A DNA stretch of 32,000 nt. It comes from Candidatus Saccharimonadota bacterium (lineage in GTDB: Bacteria; Patescibacteriota; Gracilibacteria; BD1-5; UBA2023). The stretch lies in contig JAXLZO010000001.1 of NCBI GenBank assembly GCA_046350815.1, forward strand, positions 810,001-842,000. Reading direction: 5' to 3'. Positions 285 to 32,000 of the stretch are shown piece by piece (the stretch's first letter is position 1; each line of letters starts with the position of its first letter). The translations under genes and the position numbers were made by a program. The notes under the pieces were generated by a model, which saw only the letters and a list, made by a program, of their open reading frames with translations, was not told the origin of the DNA and made no database searches.

Positions 285-1130
285 ATGCGAATATATAAGA
301 CTCAAAAAGAATCTGTATGAGCTTTTTGAGATTGGCTCACTCTCAAAAGATATTCTCCAAAAACACACAAAACATATTTGAGTGTACTCAATATGTTTCT
401 GAAAGAAATATCTATAACAATATCAAAGATACAAAGAAATGATATTGAGGAGTATTTGCAACATAAAATCCAAAATGGACTCTCAGTATCGAGGCATAAG
501 CAATTAACCTGAGTATTGAAGTTATTTTTTTCTCGTTTTTTAGAAAGACAAGATATTATCTGGGATGAAATGTATCCAGAAAAATGAGAAACCAAGCTCC
601 CAAATATTCTCTCAAAGTCAGAAGTAAAAAAACTTCTCGATACACTCAATAACGTCAAGCATAAAACTATCCTTACGCTGATATATGCCACATGAATGAG
701 ACTCTCTGAATGTGTGAATCTTCAAATTGGTGATATTGATTCAAAAAGAATGACCATCAAGATCCGACAAGCCAAAGGAAAGAAAGATCGATATGTGCCA
801 CTTTCCCCAAAGCTTCTCGATCTTCTGAGAGTGTATTATCGGGAATATCATCCAAAACAATATGTATTTGAATGATGAGAATGATGAATCTACTCGGAAC
901 GAAGTGTGCAACAAATTATGAGGCAAGCATTGAACCGAGCATTGATTACCAAAAAAGCATCGGTGCACACACTCCGTCATAGCTATGCGACACACCTTCT
1001 GGAGGATGGGGTAGACGTACGCATTATCCAAGAATTTCTGGGGCATAGCCATATACGAACGACCCAAATATACACCCATATTAGCACTCCAATTCTCTCA
1101 AAGATAAAAAGCCCACTGGATGATTTATAG
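285..1130 (+). CDS. tyrosine recombinase / phage-type integrase (Xer-like)
   Basis: ATG 285, TAG 1128-1130, one frame with nine in-frame TGA. These include TGA 693-695 in the box-I 'ATGMRLSE' motif and four within 873-887 ('FEGGEGGIY'). The C-terminus [12 protein letters not shown]...[14 protein letters not shown] supplies the R..HxxR..H..Y catalytic set. The track's 906-1130 ORF is only the tail. Confidence 0.85.
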
Positions 1131-2198: not shown

Positions 2199-2214
2199 TT
2201 CCTAATAGTAATGT

Positions 2215-2958
2215 ATGATTGATGTAAATACGTTTTTGCTGACTAATACACAAAAAAATATACAAAAAATGTATGACGAAATTCGTTTTGTTCCAACAAG
2301 TGCCATCGATGATCCTTGGGGTGGAATTGTTTTGTTTTTCTCAATAATGGGATGAATTACGTTGATGTTTCTATTATTCATGATGATGCCAGATCTTCTC
2401 ATGTTATGGATACTTCTTTGCGTACTGTTTCTTCCACTTTGCATATGAGCATTTAACACATCAAATTACAAGCAAAATCAACTTACCATGGCAATGCAAC
2501 TATATAGTAGTGAGAAGATAGATTTACTCAGAATGTATTCCTCGGTAGTATCTGATATGAATGTTGATTTCGTGGATCAAGAAATAAATCCAGAAAAGAT
2601 AATCGATATCGAGCAGGGAATTCGCAATCTTGGTAGCAGTATTGCAAGTATCTATATTTTATACAGAGATATGCTACGATCGAAGGTTAATCTGTATACT
2701 TTTTCTGATCAAACAATTCGCGCCAACTATCAAAATTTTCTCACCCAAGAGTGACTCTGGCTCACAGAATGCATTGCTTCATTTTCTCGCGATCTTGATA
2801 CCTGGATGACTCGTCATCATAGCGAGTTGGTACAGCTCAAAGATAGCGTGAATACACAAATGAAAAGTACGAATATGGTCGAATGAAAAGCAGCTCTTGG
2901 GCTGACTGAGGAGCGAATTTCGAAACTCTCTGAAGAAATTCCTATTTGTGTAAAATAA
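2215..2958 (+). CDS. hypothetical membrane protein, paralog A (TM region plus coiled-coil C-terminus)
   Basis: ATG 2215, TAA 2956-2958, same frame as track ORF 2488-2754, with four in-frame TGA. Hydrophobic stretch IVLFFSIMGGITLMFLLFMMMPDLLMLWILLCVLFLPLCIG. The C-terminal half is homologous to the next gene. Confidence 0.6.
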
Positions 2959-3941
2959 TGAATATGTTTGAAAATGAACAGCAATATACCATCAAAACAG
3001 CGGATGATATCAGAAAAATTCAGGAAGGATTTGTTCAAATGAATCCTGTGAGTAGTTCAGTTATGGTATCAGATAGCCAGAACGAAAGTATCGATCATTT
3101 TATTACGAATGAATATACAACAAAGATGCCATTGTGGTGAATTTATATGCTTTTTGGTATTTTAACGATGACTTCATTTAATGAAGGGATGCGATGAATA
3201 ATTATATGGTGTTTATTATTCATTGTTGTGTCACTGTTCTGAGTTTTCACTAAATGAGAAAGTAGTGAGATGAAAAAGATTCAAATAAATTGGTTGCGAC
3301 TCTATATTATATTTGGATATTTCTTGATGCCAATAAGTTTTTTGTATGAACCACTTTGGTTTTGATTCCCACTTTGGTTGATTATTTCTGCTGCATGCTT
3401 TTCAGTATGGGTAGTAGTAACATTTCGAGTTGAGAAAAATGTTAGATACTACATAGATACTTTCAAATTTGGCGTACAAGATTTACAGCAATTTCACTCA
3501 TCAGCCATTTTTGATATGTCGCTTGATTTTTATAGTCCTACGATTTATCCACAGCAAGTCATAAAAATACGAGATTCTATTGAGCGAGTAACTGCTCAAA
3601 TTCAACAGCTTTTGGAATTACAACATCGTATCAGTAATTATTATCAGAGATGGTTTGCAACATTTTGGTCTGTATTTTTCTCAAAAAAATTAAAAGAACA
3701 AATGCAATCTTTTTTCCGAAATGAAAGCAATCAATTGCTCATCTATGTGAATACATTCTCACAAGACCTGAATTTTTGGACAGAGAGACACAAGATGGAG
3801 CTAAGCCAATTGGAAGAAAATATAGACCAACAGAGAGAAGAAACAATTCTCCCAGAATGAAAACTTTCCCTGGAGTTGTCACAAGATCGAATTTCAAGAT
3901 TGACCCAAGAGGCTGATATGATCAGAGTCGCACAGAAATAG
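2958..3941 (+). CDS. hypothetical membrane protein, paralog B
   Basis: ATG 2958 overlaps the preceding TAA by 1 nt; TAG 3939-3941. It joins track ORFs 2946-3140 and 3378-3860 in one frame through TGA. Shared blocks with paralog A: FDMSLDFYSP/SDMNVDFVDQ, FSQDLNFWTERHKMELSQL/FSRDLDTWMTRHHSELVQL, EGKLSLELSQDRISRL/EGKAALGLTEERISKL. The G in the last block is a TGA in both copies. Confidence 0.6.
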
Positions 3942-6059: not shown

Positions 6060-7300
6060 TGTTCTCCTCTCAATCTCTCCTTAAATCGCTGGATTTTTTC
6101 GTTTTCGATATTGCTTGAAGCGTTGTACATATCCTCTATTGTCGTAAAGATAAGGGGAATTTCTCCATAGCATGAAATGCACGTGTCCGTCTTCCAAAGC
6201 GGAGTATTGATAGGGGGGTGATTGCTGATATGCGAAGTATTATATTGACCCTCGAGCGTGGTATGCGACAGGCTACAAAATGAGTAGATGAAATGCCACA
6301 AGATGTTATTTTTGGGGTTCAGTCAATTGAACTCTTTGCAGATCATATTGGTATGACCTATGCTCGTGAGGATATTGATGCACCGATAAGCATGAGCGAG
6401 CTAGATGAGATGATGCTTCATATCGAACGAAGAGCACTTGAACGATCCGAAGGGAAAATCATCGAACGTTGGTGAACACTACCGACGAGCCTCAAGCTCT
6501 CAGCATCACTTCTCACTCATATCACGCTTGATGGAGCAAATCTTTCGAATCCTCTTGGTTTTAGTGGGCATCTTCTTCGGTTGAACCTTCTGAATGTATT
6601 TGCTGGGGCAAAACATCTCAATGCACTCTCAACGATCGCACGCCACCTCAATCTCCGAGTGATTTCACATTTACCCGCTCCATTAGCACTCTCAAAATGG
6701 GAGCAACTGCTTGATTATGAATCACATGAGGGGATTATGTTTTTAGATCTTGGATCATTTGCAACACAGGTGACTCTCATGCGAGATGCACAGATTATGG
6801 ATATAGCAACTCTTCCTTTCGGAACAAATGCTATTGAGCAAGCATTAAAAAAACAGTTTCCAAAACTTGATACACTCACGATTGAGCGATCTATGATTTG
6901 ATCAAGCTGTTTATGAGACCCCGATCAACACAAAGCATTCTTGCATCACATATGATCTTTTTGTGATATTCTTTCTCGTTCGGTTGAGGATATCATGCTG
7001 AAAAACTTTGGATGACTCTCTGACGTTCGTATTTTTTTGAGTGGAGTTTCTATTGATACTCTCTTTCCAACAACTCTCGTATCTCATCTTCAGGAGATTA
7101 CCCCTCAAAAAATCTTATTGGATTCCATAACAAAACTCTACCCACTTATTGGTGATGCTTTTGACTATGACCATGAAATAATTACGGAGTGATGCTATGC
7201 AACTGCTATTTGATTAGCTCTTGCTGGTTGCGATCTTGTAGATTTTCGTGAAGATCCAATCACTTCAACACTTAGAAAGGTAATCTACCAGTATGCTTAG
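6059..7300 (+). CDS. ftsA: actin-fold ATPase, FtsA-like (PilM-like not excluded)
   Basis: ATG 6059 overlaps the upstream TAA (TAATG); TAG 7298-7300. It joins track ORFs 6293-6475 and 6581-6901 in one frame. Phosphate-binding-like motifs FVFDIAGSVVHIL and IMFLDLGSFATQVTL, in an FtsA/PilM-type order. Confidence 0.6.
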
Positions 7301-8927
7301 ACAGTCGATTCACATCACGTATGAAACCCAGCTGTTGGAGCTCTATGATATATTATCACATGAGACGAACAAGGGAATAACACTCATTGTTGAATATCCG
7401 TGATTTTTTTCGCACCCCATCGTGTTGGAAGTGATGGTAAAAAAATTTAATAGTATTGATACGATTGCAACTGATGATCGAGCACTGCAGCATGTAGCAG
7501 TGCGTCTTGGGCTGAAATCTCTTCCTCTAGATAGTTCCGTTGTAGGAGATCTCCCACCAGCATCCGAAATACTCAAGCATAATTTTACAATTTTTGAGTA
7601 TTTTCTCTACGAATGTCGTCGTGGTGTGTGGCATGTTGGACGATTTTTTGCACGGAGCAAAAAACATCTCACGTATCGTCGACCCCTCAAGAGCTCTAAC
7701 ACTCTTCTTTTGATATTTTCTTTGAGCTTCTCTTTTTTGATTCTCATTTTTGTATTTTATTTTTCTGCAACCAGCACTACAGTAGAAATATTTCCAGAAA
7801 CAACAGTAAAAACATTGACAAGAAATCTTATTTTTACCACAACACCCAATCAATCTGCCTTCGCAAAGTCGAATGAAGTAGCTATGCTACCGTTGGATGT
7901 AATGGTTCATCTTGCAACTCCATTTGAAGTGAATTCTCTTGATCCGAATTCTGTGCGAAATGCAAAATGAATGGTAGAAGTGATAAATGAGCTCCCAACA
8001 CCTTCTCAGCTGCGCCCCGGAACGCGATTTACTTCTGAGGATGGCGTCCTTTTTAAAAGTCCTGGTTGGATTAAAATACCATGAATGGTTACAAGAAATG
8101 GCGAAGTGATCCCTGGAAAGATACAAATCCCACTTGTTGCTGAGAATGTCGATGAAAAGTGACGCATTATTGGTATACGATGAAACCTTAAGAGTGGTGC
8201 ATTTCTCTCGATACCGGGCCTGAAATTTAATAAAAGCAAAGTCTATGCTCAGGTTATAGGAGATTTTAGTGGTGGCGCTGATCCTACGAAAAAAGTACTC
8301 ACTCCAGAAACACTTGACCGTTTTAAAACTCTTTTTACAGAAAAACTTAAAAGTACAGCAAAGGACGAACTTGATAACACTCTTCGAAAGCATCCTGGTT
8401 ATAATTCATCAGAAGCCTGGAATATTATTCCTCTTTTCGATGTGTGGAAATATGAATTTTCTCCCATTGAGACCATTGATAATATCCTTCCAGGCGCAAG
8501 CGTCAGCAGTATTACTCTTTCAGGTAGTCTCCATCTTCGTACGTACGCCTACTCTTCTTCAAAAACAAAAGCGTATTTTGAGCAACTCTTCGATGCAAGT
8601 CTTCTTCCAGAGACTCAGACAATTGCATCACTCAATAACACGAATATATCTATTGAATCACTCACGCCATTGAGTCAAACAGGTGTTGAAAGTTTTAAAG
8701 CAACGATGAAGATGAATGGGAATATTGTGTATAATTTTTCAAACCCAACGAATCCACTTCTGCGTCAGATACGCAATCTGATTGTTGGTAGATCGAGAGA
8801 GGAGGCACTCTCAATTCTCAAGAATGATCCAAATGTTGCTGATGCGAAAATTAGTATATCACCCTTCTTTATGAATAAAGTTTCATCGAGACCAGATGCT
8901 ATTGATTTTGTGATTCGCACCAAATAA
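7293..8927 (+). CDS. large single-pass membrane protein, CPR-type 'baseplate-J-like' family suspected
   Basis: ATG 7293 overlaps the ftsA-like end by 8 nt; TAA 8925-8927. It joins track ORFs 7422-7970 and 8442-8927 through TGA. One TM segment (LLLIFSLSFSFLILIFVFYF). The extracytoplasmic block GMVEVINELPTPSQLRPGTRFTSEDGVLFKSPGWIKIPG resembles the 'G.V.I.N....Q.L...TRF...DG..F' block I recall from baseplate-J-annotated CPR proteins. That assignment is tentative. Confidence 0.55.
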
Positions 8928-9540: not shown

Positions 9541-10551
9541 ATGCAAGATACTGAAATATTTCTCGCTCTTGAATCGTCTTGCGATGATACCTCGATTGCA
9601 GTTTTTCAATGAACAAAATTGATTGCTATGAGAACTCATACGCAACTCGTTGAACATCAGGAGACACGTTGAGTGGTTCCTGAATCAGCAGCTCGTTTGC
9701 ACGCGGACAATATTTTTCCGCTTCTTTATGAAGTCTTGCAAGATGCAAGAATAACACTTGATCAACTTAGTTATATTGCGTGTACATTTGAACCATGACT
9801 CATTCCATCTCTCTTGGTGACCAAAAGTGTAGCAAAGGTTCTCTCGTCTCGACTTGGTATTCCGCTTATTCCAGTACATCATATTGAGGGACATTTGTTT
9901 GCTCTTCTTTTAGGGAGATCTCTTGAGGAAATCAAATTTCCAGTGCTTGCTATGACGGTATCATGAGGTCATAATGAGATATATCTCTGGAAAAGCCTCT
10001 CTGATTTTGAGCGAGTAGCTTTTACTCGTGACGATAGTGCTGGTGAAGCATTTGATAAGGTTTCAAAAATGCTCGGACTCCCTTTTCCATGAGGTCCTCA
10101 TATTGCGTATCACGCTTCCCTCTACCGAGAAAAATGATGAGAGTTACTCATTCCTTCTTTCCCACTTCCAAAATTTCATCTTCATAATGGAATTGGTGAA
10201 TTTTCATTTTCATGACTCAAATCAGCTGTGAAACGTGAAATCGATCTACGAATCGCGAAAAATAGTGGCCTTACTATAGCTGATCGATGTGAAATTGCTT
10301 ATGCTTTTGAAGAGATTGTCACTCATTATCTTGCCTGATCTTTTTATGCTATAGCTCAATGTTATCCTGAAGTTACATCTCTCTGACTTTGCGGTGGGGT
10401 GAGTGCGAATGATAGACTCCGTGAAGTGATAGTAAAAGATGAAAGATATAAGCAGTACCACCCGCTCATTACACCTCTTGAAAAAAGATTTTCTCTCGAT
10501 AATGCCGCAATGATTGGCATGAGAGCATATTACGATCGAAAACGATCATAG
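9541..10551 (+). CDS. tsaD: tRNA N6-adenosine threonylcarbamoyltransferase TsaD (Kae1/Gcp)
   Basis: ATG 9541, TAG 10549-10551. Translation [88 protein letters not shown] sits on invariant glycines (9670-9672, 9964-9966, 10090-10092). The standard-code track shows no long ORF here. Confidence 0.95.
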
Positions 10552-16774: not shown

Positions 16775-16817
16775 TTGACATTAACAATATTTAATATATT
16801 ATATAAATATATTAAAT
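16775..16817 (+). promoter_or_regulatory. putative promoter of the helicase gene with an overlapping 12-bp inverted repeat
   Basis: TTGACA (16775-16780), 16-nt spacer, TATTAT (16797-16802). Perfect inverted repeat atttaatatatt (16789-16800) / aatatattaaat (16806-17) spans the -10 element. The helicase ATG is at 16834. Confidence 0.4.
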
Positions 16818-16833
16818 CAATAAGTCAAATTCT

Positions 16834-19599
16834 ATGACTCTTAACACCATTCCAGACGTCTCTCATGAGTGAGTACCAAAGAAACCAGGAAAGATAACAG
16901 ATAAATCATCCAAGATTACCACCACTCGCAATCGTTCTTCTATGATGATCCGTACCATGGATCATCTCCTCCAATCTCTCGACACACTCTCCATGGATCC
17001 CAACGAGCGAGAACTCCAGAGACAAACCTATACTGCCATACGAGAAAGCCTCAGAAGATGAGAAAAGAGCGGTATTATTAAACTCCCCACAGGTACTGGA
17101 AAGACCTGGGTCTTTGCCAATCTCCTCAATATCTTCCAAAGAAATGGCCTCATCCTCGTTCCAAGAACCGATCTCTACTCTTCCACTATCCGAGATCTTA
17201 GAGAAGTAGGATTTAAGGATTCTGAGATCAGACTCATCGCTGAGGAATCAGGAGCAAACAGTGAAGAGCGAATGCTCTCTATCCTCACGGATCCATCTAT
17301 CGACTGGTCATCATGAAGAAATGTTACTATCATGAGCTACCAGTCTCTCAACTCCATGTTCAAGACGAATCCTGAGATATGATCTTTCATGAGGTCTCAT
17401 TTCGACATGATCATCGAAGATGAAGCCCATAGAGCTCTTGGGAAGAAGACAAAGAATGCAGTAGGTACTCTCACAGAAGATTGAGAAGATCAGGAAGAAC
17501 AAAACTTAGAAGAATTCATTCAAACAGAAGAACTTGACATAGCAGAACAAAGCGAACTCGAAGCAGAGATTAACGTTGATCATATCCTCGGTCTCGATGG
17601 TGAAAGCTTTCAAAACGACGATCGCTTCAACTACAAATTCACTGCAACTCCAGATCTTCTCAAGCACAGTGTCTCTGATGAGAGTGAATACATTTTCTAC
17701 GCAACCTTCGAACAAGCGGTGCGAACAAGAGCCATCGTCCTTCCACAATACGTCAATATGGGATCTGCCTATCTACGCTCAGGAGATCTTGAGAAGTGGA
17801 AAGTCAAAGATATCGAAGCACTCTCTGATCAAGAGGATGATCAATTTATCGATGAGAATGGTCTCTCTATACGAGACAAGATCATCGATGCCTACATTGA
17901 GAAGAAACAACAACACAACAACTCTCTCCCAGCTGTTGCTTTTGCGAGTACCATCAAGCATGCAGCTATCCTCGTCGATGCTATGAGAGCAAAAGGTATT
18001 AAAGCACAGAGAGTCACGAGTGCAAGATGAGATATCTCTTCCGAACAAGCAACAGAGATGATGGATAGATGACAGCTCGATGTCATCATCACCGTTACCA
18101 AGGTATCTGAATGATTTGACTACGCACCCCTCTCCTGTGCTCTGTGGTTTGCCCCCGTTCTCTCTCCTGCGAAGATCACTCAATGAAATGGTCGTATCTC
18201 ACGAATCACGCCAGACAAGATGCCAGAACACATCGAAGATGAACAATGACGCATCATCCCTTCTCCATCGGCCTACATTATTGCTCCAAGTGAGTGGTAT
18301 AGTGGATCAAAGAGAGCGAGTGATTCAGAGAATCTAGAGGAGATCCATGAAGATACAAATTGAGATGATGTAGATGATAATAATGAAGATCAAAACCCTC
18401 AAGATCAGAAACCAAAGAAACTCTCTCGTATCTGAAACTTCTATGAACTTCTTGTTTCTCAAGGAGAATTCAACTACAACACTCTTCCAACTAATTTCCA
18501 AAACATCATCTCTCTCAAAGACTCAATCTTTTGTGAAGTATGAGATGAAGTACAAATCGATGGAGTGGTTTATATGGGAATAACCGGGACTCAAGAAGTT
18601 ATAGAACTAAGATGAGAGACTATCCTCAAGAATGCTAAAAAAGATTCAACTCTCACGATCCTCCAGGGAAGACAACAATCATGATATCCTATCCAACTCG
18701 TCCCGAAGAGCTTTATAGAATGACTCAAACAAAGTTGGCAATATACTTGTGAGGTATGAGATGAAGTACAAATCGATGGAGTGGTTTATATGGGAGTAAC
18801 CAATGCTCAAGAAGTCATGGGACTAAGATGAGGGACTATTCTCAAGAATGTCAAAAACGATCCAACTCTCACGATCCTCCAGAGAAAACAATCATCATGA
18901 CATCCTATCCAACTCGTCCCGAAGAGTTTTATAGAATGACTCCTCAATACCTGTGAAGCATGAGAAGAAAAAACAATCGATGGAGTGGTTTATATGGGAG
19001 TAACCAATACTCAAGAGGTCATGGAACTACAATGACAGACTATCCTCGCTAATGCTAAAAAAGATTCAGCTCTCACAATCCTCCAAGGAAGACAACAATC
19101 ATGATATCCTATCCAACTTGTCCCGAAGAGCTTTATAGAATGACTCAAACAAAGTCGGCAATACACTTGTGAGACATGAGAAGAAAAAACAATTGATGGT
19201 GTGGTTTATATGGGAGTAGTCACTGCTCAAGAAGTCATGGGACTACAAGGATTTACTATCCTCAAGAATGCCAAAAACGATCCAACTCTCACGATCCTCC
19301 AAGGAAGACAGAAAAATTGATTATCTATCCAACTTGTCCCGAAGAGTTTTATAGAATGACTCAAACAAAGTTGGCAATACACTTGTGAAGCATGAGAAGA
19401 AAAAACAATCGATGGAGTGGTTTATATGGGAGTAACCAGGACTCAAGAAGTCATGGGACTACAATGACAGACTATTCTTAGAAATGCTAAAAAAGATCCA
19501 ACTCTCACGATCCTCCAAGGAAGACAGAAAAATTGATTTCCTATCCAACTCATCCCGAAGAGTTTTATAGAATGACTTGTTGCAAAAAAGACAAAATAA
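16834..19599 (+). CDS. SF2 DEAH-box helicase (ResIII/DEAD-like N-terminal core plus helicase C domain) with five C-terminal tandem repeat domains
   Basis: ATG 16834, TAA 19597-19599, 921 aa in one frame with about 35 in-frame TGA. The track sees only 17719-18030. Motif I KLPTGTGKT (17080-17106), motif II EDEAH (17416-17430), FTATP, VSEGFDY, QGNGRISR. The C-terminal 345 aa are five 68-72 aa repeats. Confidence 0.85.
18532..19575 (+). repeat. coding tandem repeat, five units of 216/204/216/216/192+ bp
   Basis: Unit starts (TGT codon) at 18532, 18748, 18952, 19168 and 19384, all in the helicase frame, highly similar at DNA level. Consensus: CE.GEE.TIDGVVYMGVT..QEVMGLQG.TILKNAKKD.TLTILQGRQ..G.PIQLVPKSFIEGLKQSWQYT. 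Confidence 0.95.
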
Positions 19600-19640
19600 T
19601 AAAAATATCCACCAGATCTGGTGGATATTTTTATTATTTT
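19593..19640. terminator. bidirectional terminator, 48-bp perfect palindrome containing both convergent stop codons
   Basis: 19593-19616 is the exact reverse complement of 19617-19640 (core atatccaccag/ctggtggatat). The helicase TAA (19597-19599) and the murD TAA (19636-19634) lie in opposite arms. Confidence 0.8.
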
Positions 19641-20911
19641 TCTTGTTCCGCTAGTAGCTTCACAGCCTCTCGAAACTGCTCAGCTCGATCAAGATAGTCT
19701 CGAAACATCCCGAAACTGGCGCATCCAGGGGAGAGGAGAATTGTCTGTCATGGATGAGAGTGTGTATATGCTTGTTCTACGGCATCTTGCATGCTTATTG
19801 ATTCACTATAGTTTACTTCTGCTATCTGACACTTCTTTGTAAGGATTTCTCTGGTTGCACCGATGAGTACTGCATAATCTACGCTATCTCGGAGTGATAC
19901 TTCAAGGGTATCGAATGGATCTCATTTGTCACTACCACCTGCGATGAGTATCACCTTATTGTCTTTGTACCCTGAGAGCGCTGCTCTGAGACTCTGACAG
20001 GAGGTAGATTTGGAGTCATCGACCCAGATGCGACCGTGTGCATGAGAGATGACTTCGAGTCTGTGGGGGAGTCATGGGAGAGTTTTGAGTGTCTCGATTG
20101 CACGAGATCGATCATTCTCACTTTGTACCAATCACTCAATTATATGGAGTGCCCCGTCGATATTGAGAGCGTTGTGAGGACCGAGAAATTGGGTATCGTG
20201 AATATTGAGAGAACCAGTCGTAGATATGAGTGGAATATTTGGGTAGTTCTCAGCAATGTTGATCCCATAGAGTGATACATTTTCAGGAAATATGTATCCT
20301 ATATTTTGAAGTTTTTCATACGCTTGTTTGGTAATATATGATTCATCTTTTGCTCGTGTAATAAGATTGGCTTTTGAGAGAAAATATTCTGCAAGATTGC
20401 GATGCCAGTTGAGGTGATCACTCTCAAGATTGGTGATGATCGTGAGGTTCGGTGAGAATTCATGGAGACTGTACGCCATAAAGCTTGAAACTTCTACCAC
20501 GATGATATGATCTTCTCTCTCATTTGGAGAGAGCTTGAGAATCTGAGTGAGGGTGTCAGAGAGGGGATATTCAAAATTCCCAGAAATATGGACTTTTTCA
20601 GGGTTTTTGATGCTTTTTATGAGATTATATATCATCCAAGTGACAGTAGATTTGCCATCTGTGCCACTTATGGTTATAATAAAAGTACTTTGAGGGAGAT
20701 ATCGACTACAAAAATCAAGCTCACTTACGATTTTCCCACTTGAATAGATCTCATGCGTACAAGGAATTCATGGTGCTGGTATGATAATATCGTAGCTCTC
20801 ATAGCTTGAAGGCTTGTCACTGTCATCACAGATGTGATAGGGGAGTTCGAGATGGGTGAGGAGTTTCTCGAGTCAAGCACCTACTCGTCACTTTCAATAA
20901 ATAAGAATCAT
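19634..20911 (-). CDS. murD: UDP-N-acetylmuramoylalanine--D-glutamate ligase
   Basis: Reverse-strand ATG 20911, TAA 19636-19634, extending track ORF 20132-20635 both ways through TGA. Motifs: MILIYGKGRVGAG, ITISGTDGKSTV, VVEVSSFM, TNLESDHLNWH, LPHRLEVI, DDSKSTS, LIAGGSDKG, LLSPGCASFGMF. Confidence 0.9.
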
Positions 20912-20964
20912 AAGAGTATTATATGTGAATAAATAAACTTTCTCCATCATGAGATAAGTCATCA

Positions 20965-23595
20965 ATGCTTACATCCCTCCAAGACGGTGCAAAGGATGTT
21001 GTGAAGCGTATCTTTGGTCGTACTCATGCAATTCTAGAGCCATTTGCTCTTCCGCCTGAAGTGAATAAGCGGACAATGCAGATGCTTTCACAGTTCTATA
21101 TTGATAATGAGGTATATAATAGTGCCCTCTTTTGAGGACTGATTGACGATAAAAAACTCTGCTTTATTCTAGAGAAAAATCCACAATTTGCACAAGATTT
21201 TATTGTCAAATTTCTCGGGTATGCAAAACAAAGACAACAATGGGAACAAAAATTTGAGAAGGCAAAAGATGAAAAAAATCATTACCTCTCAGAAGAGTCA
21301 TTTTTTCATATTGAACAAGCAAATGAAGAATTCATCGAAAGTATTCGTGAATCAATGAGGGTAATTCCCATTGATTGTTACAAAGAAAAATTTGAAAATT
21401 TTGATGATGAAAGCGGTATGAGTAGAAAGAAATTTTTTGATGAGCTTCATTGATTGGAGTTATCTCTTGAGTCGTATAAAAAATCAATCGATCCACGATA
21501 TGTAGAACTCTATACTTTTCTCTATATTCGATATCTTTTTTACGCTAATATAACTCAAGATAAAGTAGATCAGTGAGATCAAGAATATTCTATTTATAAC
21601 ATAGAACGACTGAGAAATGTAGATTATATTTTGCAGGAGTTATCAAAACTTACGAATCATTCCAAGCAAAATAAAAAATGACCAACACTTGATATAAATC
21701 AAGAATTGAAATTTATTTTCTCATTGGATTCTCCTTATGATCCTTTTTCTCTGATAGAATCATCGAAACAGACAAAGTCTCTCTCATCATCCTTTGATCT
21801 TTTTTATCGTGATTATTTGTGACTCTGAGATATGATTCATACACAATCATCAATATCAGCAATTGCCACACCCTACCTTATTTCATCATATGATGATCTT
21901 GGCATCGCTGAAAATTATAATAGTCCACATGCATACTATCATCGCCCACTCCTTGATGATCCAATGAGGGCTGTAAAAATGATTGTCTACGGGAAACACA
22001 AGAAGACAAATACTCTAGCATACCGAGAACTGTATGAATTCCTCGAAAATCTTCATTATCAAAGTATTGTGGAAATGGATGTGTATAGCTTGCTAGCTCT
22101 TGAACAAAAGGATTTTGCATCTATTTTGAGTGCTGCTTTTCGCAAGCAAGCACCTGAGTCTAGAGAGGCAGCAGAGATATATTTTCAAGAATTTCAAAAT
22201 GATTTTTTTCAAGAATTTGAATCTATTATGGATGTAGATATTAAATCTATTTTTCCTTCATTTCCGAAAAATAAGCGATTTGCAACGATCAAGGATTATG
22301 CCGCATGGATTCATAGTGCCTATCCGGTCGGGAACCGTAAAAATGTTCATGATATATTGCTATCGGAAGCTGATATGTTGCGTGCAAATCTCATGAAAAA
22401 TACGATTGCATGGATCGATATACCAGTCATTCGTCGTCATCAAAATCTTGCTACAACACATCAAATGTTACTGATAGATTATCTCAAGAAATTCCATAAT
22501 AATTATTGATCATCATTTGAACAACAACATAGCTTGAATAAGTTTATCTTTCACACAAAGATTGCGTGAACATCGCCTGAAATAAGCGTTGATATACACT
22601 TTGAAATCAGTTCACGTATCAAGGATCTTGCCTCAGTTCTGGTGAAGATGCTTGGTGACCCAAAGTATAACTATGTTGATTCTCTGAGAGATCTCTCCGG
22701 TATGAGATGTATTATTGATGGTTATTACGGTGTTGGTGATCCGTTTGATGGTTGATTTATCCTCCTTAAGGATTCAAATAATTTTGCTCAGCAAGCATAT
22801 AATCAATTTGTGCTTGCTCTAGTATGATTTATCGAAAAAAATTCCTTGATTTATAAATTCAAGGGAACACCATCGAATCCTGCTGCACACAATGAACTTG
22901 TTCAAAAATTGAACATGATATTTCCACATCTTGAACTCAAGACGCGTTCTCTACGAGATTATACTGGCAAGACTGATAATGGATATACTGATGCCAGTAT
23001 CACTGGTAATCCCCTGATTATGGATGACTCACAAGAGAATGGTCATTCTCAAGTACGTACTGAAATACAAATAATGACCAGATCTATGAAGAGTGATCTT
23101 CGATGACCAGCATCCTGAGCATGTTATAATGCAAAAAAATTTATGACACTTTTGAGTCGTCAGAATCGAATATTTTCCCTGAAAGATTTTTATCGAATAT
23201 GCGCATCAAATGCGCTTCATCAAGATGGCATTGCTTCATCATGAATGGAACCGGAGGATTTTTTAAAATATCTTCTTTGCAAATGATATCTTTCTGCTTA
23301 CACGTATTGACCTGATCAAGAAGGAATTCTCTTGAACGCAAATGAATATGAATATCGATTGGATGAGATACGTGCAAATGGTAGCTCTATCCGTCAAAGC
23401 GCAAATTTAAAAAAGATGTCTATTTTTTGAATGAAGATGGACATTTCTGCAACTCTTTATCCGAAAAATCAAAATATACTTGATCAGTATGGCAATATTC
23501 GCAAATGAAAAAAATGGGAGGAGATTATAAAGGCTTTTTACCTGAATCCCAAACTGTGCAGTTGAGATCAAAATGTTTCTCTCGCCAAAAAATAA
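20965..23595 (+). CDS. large hypothetical protein (876 aa) with a divergent RelA/SpoT-like nucleotidyltransferase core in the C-terminal third
   Basis: ATG 20965, TAA 23593-23595. It joins track ORFs 21832-22509 and 22846-23106 in one frame through about 17 TGA. Candidate RSD motifs in canonical order: ISSRIKDLASVLVKM (about 22606), LRDLSGMRCII (about 22690), NGYTDASI, and VRTEIQIMT (23062-23079; the canonical form is ExQxRT). The N-terminal ~520 aa has no recognisable domain. Confidence 0.6.
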
Positions 23596-27982: not shown

Positions 27983-28522
27983 TTATGGATTAATCCTTGT
28001 TATTTGAATAGGAGTCATACTATCACCTATTGATCGAATTCGTAAATTTGCACCATAATCATTCCATGTTGATGGTGATGACCAAGTATAATAGGTAAAA
28101 AGCTGCGATGGATACTGTCACATATATCATGATAAATTTAGAAAATTTAAGTTTGTTAATGTGATTAATTGATTTGATGGAGCACTATTCATATGGTGTC
28201 AGTTAAGGTTCAAATATTCTAAATTAATAAGGTTTCCAAAAGTGTTTGGTAAGCTCGTAAAACTTCCGTATGCAATATCTAAATGTTTAAGGTTTACTAA
28301 GTTATCAATACTGCTCGGTATGTTATTTAGATAAGCTCATCAAGAGCTTGGTCATCAGATGGACAAACGTTCAAGCAGGTTAAGAGATGTTATGATTTCT
28401 GGAAAACTATTAAATCGAGTATCAGTGATGCGCAAATCTTTTAAGTTTGTCATTCACGATAGGGTAGTTGGAAGGGAGTTGAGTGGATATCAAGTGAGAT
28501 TTAAATATTCTAATTGGTCTAG
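27983..28522 (-). pseudogene. C-terminal LRR portion of the pilin-leader/FN3/LRR gene, separated from the upstream part by a compensating frameshift pair
   Basis: Same frame as 28547-29998, ending TAA 27985-27983. Translation NLTGYPLNSLPTTLSGMTNLKDLRITDTRFNSFPEIITSLNLLERLSIGG..NLVNLKHLDIAYGSFTSLPNTFGNLINLEYLNLNG..LTNLNFLNLSG. There is no own start until ATG 28453, and the LRR register continues from the upstream part. Confidence 0.6.
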
Positions 28523-28546
28523 ATTACCAACGCTATCAGGGAGCGA

Positions 28547-29998
28547 ATTAAACGCGCTCGCTATGGATGATCTCTGCAATTCGATAGTACGCAGCTTCCG
28601 TAGATTACCGAATTCTTCAGGAAGACTTGTGAAATTATTAGATCCTCAACTGAGATATTGAAGCTCTCGAAGTTTTGTTATAGCGATCGGAAAAGTACTT
28701 AAAGATTTATTAGAGATATTAATATTTGTTTGCGTACACCATGTTCATTTATCATATGTTACATTTGTAAGGTTGTTGAGTTGAATAACCTCTGCATCAC
28801 TGAGATCATCAATACATGGAATATGTGCATACGCTTGAATAATTCATGAATAAATACTTTCTCAATGACTATTTATTGCTTTTACCTTGTAAAAAGTAGT
28901 GACATCATTTGTTCTTCATGTGTGTGTGTATCCCGTATTTGATATGTTGATGATTTCTGTATATGTTCCTGATAGACTCGTTGACCACGCAAGAGTATAT
29001 TGTGTTGCTCATGTAACATAGTCCCATGTAAGCGAAATAGATCCGCTTCATCCAGTTGTCTGAAGATTTTCTGGTGTTTGAGGTACGCTCCCACCATTAC
29101 TCCCACTACTCCCACTATTCATCCCCAAAAGACTCTTCTCATCAAAGCTTCCATTCTTCAGAGCATTGAGTGATCCAGTAGAGATATCCGTGGATACATA
29201 TTCATCAGCTCACTGTGATCCTACTATGATATCAAGCGTACTTGCATCACTCAAAGAGATATCTCTACTTCCTGTACCACTCACTCCATTCTGAAGAGGT
29301 TGCTTACTTCCCTTGGAGAGAAAGATTCAAAGCCTATCTCCTGCAGAGTAGGGATATCTCTTGGAGAGATCAATAGAACTGCTATCGAGAGCATAGGCTG
29401 TATCAAATGGATACATGGTATCTCAGGCGTACGCCTGAGATACTCTCATTCCTTCCATTGTTCCTTCTGTTGCTTCGCGAAGTGAAGCAGAGAGTGTATC
29501 TCAAAAATTTGAGAAACTTCCAATGTTTGCAAGATCTCAGAGAGTGGATGGAAGAGATTGCTTCGCAATCTCAATACTCCTCTCAAATCTTGGATTCTCA
29601 AGGTATGCCATGAACTGTGCACTATCGTAGTGTTGATTGACTCGATAGGTATAGGGTATATTGTCTTTGGGATCAAAGATTTTATCTGATCCATACCCGA
29701 GAGGATTCACCAGAGTAGTATTCATGAATCCTTGGTATCCAATGAATGATCCACTCACACTCAGAGAGACACTATCTGCTATAGGTGTAGGAAGTAATCG
29801 AAGCTGTGCACTGGTAATTCTCGCACTCTCTGACAATGTCTTAATATCACTAATTCTCTTTCCATCTCTTGCCACTGATGACTCATGACTCATCACGACA
29901 AACCCTATCACGGAGAGTATAGAGAGTATGGTGATGACTACTATGAGTTCGGTGAGGGTGAAGGCGGAATGCTTTTTCACCGAAGAGAAGATTTGCAT
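28547..29998 (-). CDS. type IV pilin-like (prepilin N-terminal leader) surface protein with Gly/Ser linker, FN3 domain and leucine-rich repeats (5' portion up to the frame break)
   Basis: Track ORF 29537-29998 starts MQIFSSVKKHSAFTLTELIVVITILSILSVIGFVV, a class III prepilin leader plus hydrophobic helix. It reads through TGA to TAA 28549-28547. FN3-like segment PENLQTTGGSGSISLTWDYVTGATQYTLAWSTSLSGTYTEIINISNTGYTHTGRTNDVTTFYKVKAINSHGESIYS (about 29083-28847), then LRRs LRELQYLSGGSNNFTSLPEEFGNLRKLRTIEL. Confidence 0.75.
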
Positions 29999-30137
29999 AG
30001 TATACGATGATAATAAAATACAAGGTGTATGTGTATGGTAGTAAGAATATCACAGTTCTTATGAAAAGTAAAAAATACCCAATGAGAAGTTGAGTATTTT
30101 TTGTAGACAAACGGAGTTTTAGTTTTTGGTATAGGTT

Positions 30138-32000
30138 TTACTTTTTTATAGAACTACCCATTTGATTCTGGGTTGTTGTTTGTTGTGCTAACTTCTTTGC
30201 TCTTTCCTCATCTTTCTGAGCTTTGATCTTCTCTTTGTGTGCTTCCTGGTTTTGTTTGAATTTCTTTTCATCATCTGTCACTTTGTTGCCGTAGTCATTG
30301 ATTTTTTTCTCTACAAATTCTCGTGGTTTTGCGTATTTTTCTCGAGAAATAGCACGGATTTTTACTGGGTCTTGCTTTGGTACTGTCAGATGATCATTAA
30401 TCGGAGCAAAGGTTGTTGCGGAGAATACTGGTGATGGCATACCATCAATGAGAAGTTTTGTATAGATATCATATTTTCTCAGATTTTGGAGGTCTTGTGC
30501 GGATATAACATCTTCATCACCCATAACTTCCACCATTTTTGGGGCATCTTCTGGGCCGACTTGAAATGAAATTGTGGATCCTACGTTACCAAATACAGCT
30601 CACTGAACTACCTCAGACATCTGAGATATGTATTGATTTGCCATTACAAGTGAGAGTCGATATTTGCGTGCTTCTGAGAGGATGGTTGCAAAGGAATCAG
30701 TAGCAAAGTTCTGAAATTCGTCTACATAAAGGAAGAAGTCTTTACGATCTTTTTCAGGAATATCAGCACGAGTCATCGCGTCGATCTGGAATTTCGTTAC
30801 CATCATAGATCCGAGAAGAGCGGAAGTATCTTCACCAATACGACCTTTTGAGAGATTGATGATACAGATTTTTTGATTATCCATGATCCATCTGAGGCTG
30901 AATGGATTTTTTGGTTGTCCGAGGATATTGCGCATCAGGGGGCTGGAGAGGAATTGTCCAACCTTGTTGAGAATCGGCCCAGCCGCCTCGACCATTTGAT
31001 TCGGTGCCATAGCTTCATACTCTGAGAGCCAAAACTTTTTGAGGAGAGGATCTTTGACTTTATCGATGATTTTTCTCCTATACGACGCATGAGTGAGAAC
31101 CACGGGGATGGACATAATCGTCTCATCACCAACATCGAGAAGTGATAGTACCGTGTTTCTGAGGATGTGTTCCAGACGTGGTCACCAAGAATCTCAGAAA
31201 ATTCTTTTAAAGACACTCACAAGACCAGATGCTACAATAGGCTGCAGATCTCTATGGACACTCTCAAGCATGTTAAATCCGATAGGATAGTTGAGATCCG
31301 TCGGATCAAAAAGTACCACATCATTTGTTCTACTTTTTGGTATCGAAGCGAGTATCGTTTCGGCAAGATCTCCATGCGGATCAATAAGCCCAACGCCGCG
31401 TCATTTCACAATATCATCATAGATCATGTTCTCGAGGAGTGTTGATTTCCCCATACCTGTTTTTCCGATGATATAGACGTGACGACGACGATCGAGAAGT
31501 GGTGAGCCAAAACTTTTTTGAGTTCCTCGAAAATTGGTTTTTCCAATAGGTGTCAGAGTATCATCGTCTTCTATGAGTGGGAGATTCGCTGGTGGTTCGA
31601 ATTTTTTGGAAGTTACCCAATTGATACCGGGAGTTTTGACGTAGAGTGTAGGTAAATGAACGAGACCTGCTACTTCGGCACTACAAAAATACCATGGATG
31701 AAAATGTTCTCGTTTTGCTACTCGATCACCCGATATGGGTGCTATTTTATCTAAGACAAAGCCATTACGATCAGGAAGATTGAATATATTGAGCGCACCA
31801 ACCATTTCTCTGATATGACTCTTCGCTTGGATAGGATCATTCTCATAACTTACGACTGCGAGTGAGGTATAATAACCAAATCATGCGAGTTTTTGCTTGA
31901 TAGCGAGATCGAGATCCTTGTCTCCTTTATCTCATTCCGTATGACGTGTTTTCACATCCTCTGAGGTGGCAGGAGGACTAAAAATCATTCAAAATCACCG
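30138..32000 (-). CDS. TraD/VirD4-like type IV secretion coupling-protein ATPase (TrwB/TraG-D_C type); N-terminus beyond the right edge
   Basis: Track ORFs 30138-30536, 30600-31115 and 31401-31805 are one frame joined by TGA and open to 32000; TAA 30140-30138. Walker A RHVYIIGKTGMGKSTLL, Walker B FFLYVDEFQNFAT, then RKYRLSLVMANQYISQM..VFGNVGSTISFQVG. Lys/Glu-rich low-complexity C-terminal tail. Confidence 0.75.

Follow-up and report, generated by a model that had tools for sequence, protein, structure and literature searches.

Five tandem C-terminal modules with remote similarity to helix-turn-helix arrays on an SF2 helicase of a code-25 Gracilibacteria genome

What are the five tandem repeats at the C-terminus of a stand-alone superfamily 2 (SF2) helicase in a Gracilibacteria genome, and what might they do for the motor that carries them? 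The helicase gene lies in a 32,000-nt stretch of Candidatus Saccharimonadota bacterium (Patescibacteriota; Gracilibacteria; BD1-5; UBA2023; assembly GCA_046350815.1), positions 810,001 to 842,000 of the forward strand of contig JAXLZO010000001.1, hereafter the window. In Gracilibacteria, as in other bacteria of the candidate phyla radiation, genomes are very small and the machinery of DNA maintenance is poorly understood. An earlier reading made from the letters and open reading frames (ORFs) of the window, here called the sequence-only reading, had compared the repeat unit to the winged helix-turn-helix (HTH) of excisionases and MerR. The array exists, is conserved at four to five copies, has been homogenised by concerted evolution, and is remotely similar to HTH arrays at the profile level.

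The five-unit array and its orthologues

Tandem Repeats Finder (TRF) returned one array (18531..19577; period 216, 4.9 copies, 84% matches, score 1392), and the five unit starts marked by the sequence-only reading were recovered on translation, all units being in the helicase frame with lengths of 216, 204, 216, 216 and 216 nt (Table 1). The 12-nt deletion reported for unit 2 is likewise present and removes four codons from the inter-unit linker (LLNT versus LKQSWQYT). The units had also been called near-identical, which they are not: pairwise identity is 80-89% in nucleotides and 72-86% in amino acids, with dS of 0.13-0.36 and dN/dS of 0.29-0.82 among them. Four TGA codons per unit, read as Gly under genetic code 25, had been placed at conserved positions, and TGA does occupy codons 4, 28, 51 and 64 of the unit in four of the five copies; in the remaining copy, unit 4, codon 28 is GGA, a difference that is synonymous under code 25.

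A search with the motor core found at least six orthologues (P0002-P0007; 48-76% identity), and all of those with a complete C-terminus carry four or five copies of the window protein's unit (four in P0003 and P0005, five in the remaining ones). Most orthologue records were deposited with TGA read as Trp (code 4), giving motifs such as PTWTGKT and SEWFDY at the P0002-P0007 loci; retranslation from the DNA under code 25 restored the Gly motifs and, for four orthologues, yielded the unit consensus IDGVxYxGVTxxxEVLGVKGxTILxNAKK...GRQKNGxxIxLVPKSFIEGL. The units group by protein and not by position, except for the last unit of the window protein (unit 5), which pairs with the last unit of P0002, its nearest relative outside its own protein. 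This clustering within proteins indicates that an old architecture of conserved copy number has been subject to concerted evolution, and the strong divergence of the P0004 units shows that the array is not merely a recent expansion. Thus, where the sequence-only reading had offered recent expansion or concerted evolution, the grouping of units by protein supports the latter, whereas an architecture shared down to 48% identity, together with P0004, shows that the former alone does not suffice. The expected variation in copy number is found between lineages (four versus five), but instability among strains is not: the arrays of P0002 and P0006 are each base-for-base identical between independent metagenome assemblies, even though the P0002 flanks differ at 5 sites.

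These identical arrays also bear on whether the five copies could be an assembly or annotation artefact, collapsed or inflated, or an untranslated pseudogene tail. An array with a 216-nt period can in principle be difficult to assemble, and in this metagenome-assembled genome (MAG) the locus stands on one contig only. That contig is 1.28 Mb long, however, the units differ at 11-20% of nucleotides, the frame is open over 1068 nt with purifying selection, and the orthologues all have 4-5 units. Since independent assemblies agree and the longest exact run common to two units is 55 nt, an assembly artefact is very unlikely; the collapse to which the array had been thought prone is unlikely on the same 55-nt limit, and the artefact explanation as a whole is given almost no weight.

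Two further searches returned nothing and are not counted as absence. A word-indexed search of 5.8 billion proteins with the 355-aa array was empty, a false negative, as an identical protein is in that database. A scan of genome and metagenome contigs with the unit alignment was also empty, probably because tblastn reads TGA as a stop and Gly is back-translated to GGN. Deposition with TGA as Trp corrupts the glycine-rich turns that define the module, and word-indexed and tblastn-based searches therefore missed the repeat; the case is a warning for the annotation of code-25 genomes.

The repeat unit and its relatives

An exhaustive search of 1.84 billion representative sequences with a profile of the unit recovered, beyond the helicase family and two proteins that were set aside, only tandem-HTH proteins. 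One of these (P0046) matches I-TevI_DNA-bd (3.9e-38) and NUMOD1 (2.1e-28), another (P0042) matches HTH_17 (2.5e-19), and four (P0040, P0041, P0044 and P0045) carry 7-13 copies of an unnamed unit of ~72 aa and match HTH_36, HTH_10, HTH_17 and NUMOD1. In the P0040-type proteins columns 14-40 of their own unit are a recognised HTH, scoring above the Pfam cut-offs for HTH_36 (44.5 bits, cut-off 25), HTH_10 and HTH_11 when scores are summed over the repeats. Within the helicase family, the repeat region of P0007 exceeds the Pfam whole-protein cut-offs for HTH_29 (40.4 versus 28.1 bits), HTH_Tnp_IS1 and HTH_10, again summed over repeats.

Profile-profile comparison with hhalign linked the unit to the P0040-type unit (96.3%, E 2e-9, 63 of 72 columns), to the I-TevI/NUMOD1-type units of P0046 (85.9%, unit columns 7-38, spanning the strand and the HTH) and to the HTH_17-type units of P0042 (67%, columns 10-70). 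All hhalign and profile links fall in a single register, the one that the sequence-only reading had proposed. When the P0040-type profile was compared with the Protein Data Bank (PDB), the best matches were non-significant, yet they were HTH motifs in register, led by the phage excisionase 4j2n.

The two proteins set aside, P0023 (1929 aa) and P0043 (280 aa), contain up to 34 copies of a W/F/K-rich repeat of ~56 aa, and only unit columns 11-39 were matched. They look like translated satellite or spurious ORFs and not true relatives.

AlphaFold2 (AF2) modelled the unit from a 32-unit alignment with a mean confidence (pLDDT) of 89.4 and a predicted TM score (pTM) of 0.74. The model has strands at residues 6-9 and 12-17, two-residue strand or bridge segments at 22-23 and 26-27, a helix at 28-37, a hairpin at 44-47/53-58 and a helix at 59-71, and all five units show the same pattern in the full-length model. 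Charge is bipolar, the first 27 residues being acidic and the helix-plus-wing segment (28-60) basic (+3 to +5), and positions K36 and R47 are basic in 24 of 24 units.

On this evidence the unit is most likely a divergent HTH-derived module consisting of an extra acidic hairpin, a strand, a degenerate helix 1, helix 2, a wing and helix 3, and we infer for it a role in binding DNA and tethering the helicase. The following results weigh against that reading. Single-unit scores to the HTH arrays are weak (16 bits at most), the whole-protein E-values are inflated because scores sum over many non-independent repeats, and the hhalign templates are not independent because they were picked from the same profile matches. 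No Pfam family reached threshold with the units, the best being I-TevI_DNA-bd (0.007, for the array) and HTH_29 (0.011, for three units), and a sequence search of the PDB with the unit gave nothing even at E = 10. In two independent AF2 runs the expected HTH helix 1 (residues 18-27) was built as short strands or turns, with no helix. Foldseek found no significant neighbour of the unit model either in the PDB (best E 0.09, TM 0.42 or less) or in the viral structure library BFVD (best E 0.16). Net charge is about zero per unit and -31 for the whole protein, which is strongly acidic. No noteworthy candidate for tandem DNA targets was seen in the window, and no conserved partner gene was found across the orthologous loci.

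The excisionase/MerR-type winged HTH of the sequence-only reading is therefore upheld in part. Remote profile similarity, the basic helix and wing, and an AF2 topology that, helix 1 apart, resembles the order of strand, helix 1, helix 2, wing and C-terminal helix agree with it; helix 1 itself was not built, and neither a significant family match nor a significant structural neighbour was obtained. HTH_17 and MerR models matched none of the 32 units at E of 1 or lower, and I-TevI_DNA-bd scored 16.7 bits on the whole array against a cut-off of 27. Membership of the unit in the excisionase/MerR, NUMOD1 or Bro-N families is not established.

The structural searches also raise the question of whether the module has another ancestry. 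The low-probability PDB matches are scattered among winged-helix proteins (PadR/LmrR, the topoisomerase II winged-helix domain, DnaD-N), and the matches of highest probability in BFVD (0.57-0.77, TM ~0.5) are phage regulatory, antirepressor N-terminal and Bro-N DNA-binding proteins. Together with a weak Pfam match of one unit to P22_AR_N (0.0038) and a model rich in strands, the latter would suit a module of the phage Bro-N/antirepressor-N (P22_AR_N)/Rha-like alpha+beta class and not of the excisionase/NUMOD1 HTH class, its function still being DNA binding. The BFVD matches are non-significant (E 0.16 or worse), however, no sister HTH-array protein matches Bro-N in Pfam, and profile-profile comparison favours HTH modules, so this placement is considered improbable.

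Somewhat better placed, though still unlikely, is an HTH-descended module that does not bind nucleic acid, in which case the array would act as a protein-interaction or oligomerisation platform, or as a flexible spacer, and would recruit partners to the helicase. The missing helix 1, the net-neutral units with acidic N-terminal hairpins and the lack of a significant neighbour in the PDB and BFVD are all compatible with such a platform, and a dN/dS of 0.3-0.8 among units suggests relaxed constraint at many surface positions. On the other hand, the basic helix and wing positions are invariant in the orthologues, the relatives found by profile search are all HTH arrays, and fusion to a DNA motor makes DNA the obvious ligand.

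Motor core and proposed architecture

The N-terminal part of the protein has the helicase motifs I (PTGTGKT), II (DEAH), III (TATP), V (TKVSEGFD) and VI (QGNGRISR), with an acidic insertion modelled at low confidence (residues ~199-260) between motifs II and III. Over this part (566 residues) Pfam returned ResIII (1.6e-20), DEAD (1.3e-10) and Helicase_C (4.5e-4). The first RecA-like domain, with Walker A and DExH, scores 74.1 bits to ResIII (cut-off 22.5) and 41.7 bits to DEAD (cut-off 26); the second has motifs V and VI and scores 20.9 bits to Helicase_C, slightly below the cut-off of 23.5. In Foldseek alignments to RadD, HsdR and Hef (probability 1.00) the two RecA domains are both covered. 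Both RecA-like domains of an SF2 helicase are thus present with their motifs, in agreement with the earlier description of a helicase of this superfamily that stands alone and ends in five reiterated modules.

RadD ranked first among the structural neighbours of the motor core (7r7j, 8h5y, 6jde; E 1.7e-11, 17% identity), ahead of motors of the HsdR, FANCM/Hef, SauUSI, RIG-I-like and SNF2 types; ISW1 and Chd1 were also among the matches. By sequence, the similarity to XPB, Hef and SauUSI is marginal, and profile matches to RadD, XPB, UvrB, type I R subunits and PbeA are below threshold. The top NCBIfam match is RadD (NF053632) at 26.8 bits against an equivalog cut-off of 720, so that the helicase, though structurally nearest to RadD, is not its orthologue. 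A DEAH/ResIII-type motor core is common to RadD (YejH), XPB, Hef/FANCM, HsdR, SauUSI and the window protein; the latter, however, has just 15-17% identity to these motors and a different accessory array, and has neither a zinc finger nor the RadD C-terminal domain. The motor is a generic DEAH/ResIII DNA-translocase-type core and not an orthologue of a characterised enzyme. The protein as a whole is best explained as a lineage-specific (Gracilibacteria, code 25) chromosomal SF2 DNA translocase or helicase of the DEAH/ResIII type, structurally nearest to RadD, XPB/Hef and HsdR.

A role in a defence system was considered and rejected. PADLOC gave only partial matches to the motor domain (PbeA, 48 bits over ~150 residues; type IV restriction endonuclease), and the neighbouring genes are housekeeping genes (FtsW, NDK, MurD, sugar transferase) that differ between orthologues, with no sign of a defence island.

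Taking motor and array together, we lean by a modest degree towards a RadD/XPB-like motor tethered to DNA through a flexible acidic linker and five divergent HTH-derived, predicted DNA-binding modules. In such a protein the flexible acidic linker of ~80 residues would join the motor to five modules of ~65 residues, themselves separated by linkers of 3-7 residues. Each module would begin with an acidic beta-hairpin, followed by a degenerate helix 1 with its turn (EV[LM]G-x-x-G) and by a putative 'recognition' helix (xTILxNAKK); a basic wing formed by a beta-hairpin (GRQKNG) and a helix at the C-terminus (KSFIEGL) would complete it. The five modules may bind next to one another along duplex DNA, in the manner of tandem NUMOD modules or of head-to-tail excisionase filaments. 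The array would then either anchor the motor to DNA or load it there, and would increase the motor's local concentration, its processivity or its preference for sites, while the acidic linker and acidic hairpins might modulate DNA binding. Function of the modules is argued because their number and the basic residues of helix and wing are conserved.

A bolder proposal, to which we give little credence, is that the unit is an undescribed small fold, derived from an HTH, in which a beta-hairpin has replaced helix 1, and that the homogenised five-unit array is a new kind of polymeric DNA (or RNA) tracking device that reads a periodic feature of the Gracilibacteria chromosome and loads a housekeeping translocase, which would stand in for a repair or restart helicase absent from these reduced genomes. 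Such a change of helix 1 to a hairpin, if true, would explain why a model of pLDDT 89 has no match in the PDB or BFVD.

The favoured architecture, a motor tethered by HTH-derived modules, resembles several known systems in part. Homing-endonuclease NUMOD modules are tandem, linker-separated DNA-binding modules on a catalytic domain, an arrangement shared with the helicase array, and the NUMOD1/I-TevI modules (PF07453, PF20987), like the helicase unit, have an 'xIDGVxY' strand followed by an HTH-like segment. NUMOD1 is found in the context of GIY-YIG enzymes (PMC1564403). The helicase unit differs in its greater length, a wing hairpin and a C-terminal helix being added, and in being fused to a helicase and not to a nuclease; its match to these families is sub-threshold and its helix 1 unmodelled. 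The excisionase/MerR winged HTH (HTH_17, PF12728) has the layout proposed for the unit: a short strand, helix, turn, helix, beta-hairpin wing and C-terminal helix. The excisionase-type protein RdfS forms head-to-tail oligomers on DNA (PMC11963761), which a covalent array of five units could, by analogy, mimic. In contrast to excisionase, Xis and RdfS, the helicase units are covalently linked instead of self-assembling, are without a recombinase partner, and have no significant HTH_17/MerR match.

The nearest detectable sister domain is the repeat of P0040, P0041, P0044 and P0045, which has in common with the helicase unit a ~72-aa period, a hairpin-HTH-wing-helix layout and a wing with a conserved R-G-K...G. 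In contrast, these proteins have no helicase part and are made up entirely of 7-13 units, show a canonical HTH signature (ALARxLGISxxTI) and come from standard-code organisms; they are metagenomic, uncharacterised and annotated as 'hypothetical proteins'. ATP-driven DNA motors in which HTH-type modules hold or recognise DNA are represented by ISWI/CHD1 with SANT-SLIDE and by FtsK with its gamma winged HTH, so a motor with HTH-type anchors is a known design. The likeness is one of analogy, as the accessory domains are unrelated in sequence and number one or two modules, versus five homogenised repeats here.

No description of the module, of its occurrence as five homogenised repeats on a RadD/XPB-like core or of its restriction to code-25 Gracilibacteria was found in the domain libraries and literature searched. 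The statement that no helicase family of this architecture has been described accordingly holds as far as a repeat family model or a paper is concerned, but the protein and its orthologues are already public under generic annotations. The repeat unit merits its own family model, and with the P0040-type arrays it forms a tandem HTH-like group of ~72-aa period that domain libraries have missed. The helicase is conserved and present in single copy, and its whole C-terminal third is taken up by an unclassified repeat under concerted evolution, which makes it a concrete and testable candidate for DNA transactions peculiar to the lineage. If DNA binding is true, the array would also provide a natural case of HTH modules joined covalently in series on a motor.

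Gene, genetic code and surroundings

Under translation table 11 the helicase region is broken into short ORFs, whereas with TGA as a sense codon it is a single open frame (16816..19599) with 31 in-frame TGA codons. Translated from 16834, the 921-aa product is identical to NCBI MFO0764028.1 (P0001), whose title, 'MAG: DEAD/DEAH box helicase family protein [Candidatus Gracilibacteria bacterium]', is its only annotation and is generic.

Table 1. Coordinates of the helicase gene, its parts and adjoining features in the window.
Feature	Coordinates	Strand	Description and basis
Helicase gene	16834..19599	+	921 aa; 31 in-frame TGA = Gly; stop TAA 19597-19599
SF2 motor core	16954..18288	+	residues ~41-485; Pfam, AF2 (partly confident), Foldseek
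Acidic linker, predicted disordered	18289..18531	+	residues ~486-566; net charge -10; pLDDT <50 at 486-565
Repeat unit 1	18532..18747	+	72 aa; TRF, translation, unit hidden Markov model (HMM) 105 bits
Repeat unit 2	18748..18951	+	68 aa; 12-nt shorter linker; TRF, translation, unit HMM
Repeat unit 3	18952..19167	+	72 aa; unit modelled by AlphaFold, pLDDT 89.4; TRF, translation, unit HMM
Repeat unit 4	19168..19383	+	72 aa; GGA for TGA at unit codon 28; TRF, translation, unit HMM
Repeat unit 5	19384..19596	+	71 aa; C-terminal; basic tail VAKKTK; TRF, translation, unit HMM
Sigma-70-like promoter candidate	16775..16802	+	TTGACA, 16-nt spacer, TATTAT; 11/12 matches; ~30 nt upstream of annotated ATG; consensus scan only
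Candidate bidirectional terminator	19594..19639	.	perfect 46-nt palindrome; 20-bp stem; T runs on both strands; terminator scan
murD	19634..20968	-	convergent with helicase gene; common terminator candidate

The assignment of TGA to Gly (code 25) rests on TsaD (9541..10551), which has ten TGA codons. Six of them coincide with invariant glycines of PDB 8iey, in the motifs GGVVPE, GPG, HxEGH, SGGH, GEAFDK and PGGP, and not one coincides with Trp. In the helicase, the conserved Gly of motif V (SEGFD) is encoded by TGA. Translation of TGA as Trp (code 4) is ruled out by the TsaD alignment and by motifs I and V in the helicase orthologues. TGA makes up 45% of the Gly codons of the helicase gene, within the range of the neighbouring genes (7-56%).

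The promoter candidate upstream of the helicase is suggestive only, because promoter-like sites in the region are not above shuffle expectation. The terminator scan found seven sites in the region versus 2.6 expected, and the palindrome downstream of the helicase, which has AT-rich arms and the GC core CCACCAGATCTGGTGG, overlaps the stop codons of both the helicase gene and the convergent murD. Judged from these signals, the helicase gene is predicted to be a separate transcription unit with its own promoter-like site and terminator.

Gene order around the helicase (TsaD, thioredoxin-like, FtsW, NDK, HD, Bac_transf, helicase, MurD) is preserved in the nearest orthologue, and the remoter orthologues lie in other housekeeping neighbourhoods. 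A conserved operon was rejected, synteny being confined to the closest orthologue. At the P0006 locus (L002) a Holliday-junction-resolvase-like endonuclease gene (PF10107, Endonuc_Holl; 7411..7806) lies immediately upstream of the helicase; this neighbour is consistent with a role in recombination or repair, although it is a single case that is not kept in the other loci.

The window is a stretch of cellular genome with genes for GatB, TsaD, FtsW, Ndk, MurD, MurI, SecD and RuvC. At its left edge is a tyrosine recombinase/integrase gene (285..1130, +; Phage_integrase 4.5e-43 and a SAM-like N-terminal domain), separated from the helicase by ~16 kb of DNA that includes housekeeping genes. The product of 7284..8927 is a 544-aa protein with no Pfam match. 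Downstream of the helicase, an 890-aa orphan (20914..23595, +) with 20 TGA codons gives as its sole Pfam signal RelA_SpoT (22 bits, cut-off 27; residues 661-728) and could be a divergent nucleotidyltransferase or alarmone-synthetase-like protein.

At the right end of the window a gene that continues past it (30138..32000, -) encodes an ATPase resembling type IV secretion coupling proteins (TrwB_AAD_bind 1.2e-10, TraG-D_C, T4SS-DNA_transf). It adjoins a gene (27983..30058, -; 22 in-frame TGA) whose 671-aa product combines a type IV pilin methylation motif (N_methyl) at the N-terminus, a central FN3-like region and C-terminal leucine-rich repeats (LRR; LRR_14 1.1e-21), and the two may be part of a conjugative or competence-type module. 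The pilin-LRR fusion is unusual and could serve an episymbiotic bacterium as an adhesion tip towards its host or partner. Two membrane-protein ORFs near the left end (2212..2958 and 2847..3941, +) overlap by ~110 nt in different frames and, having a similar C-terminal motif (…W.T/ERH..EL.QL…), look like tandem paralogues.

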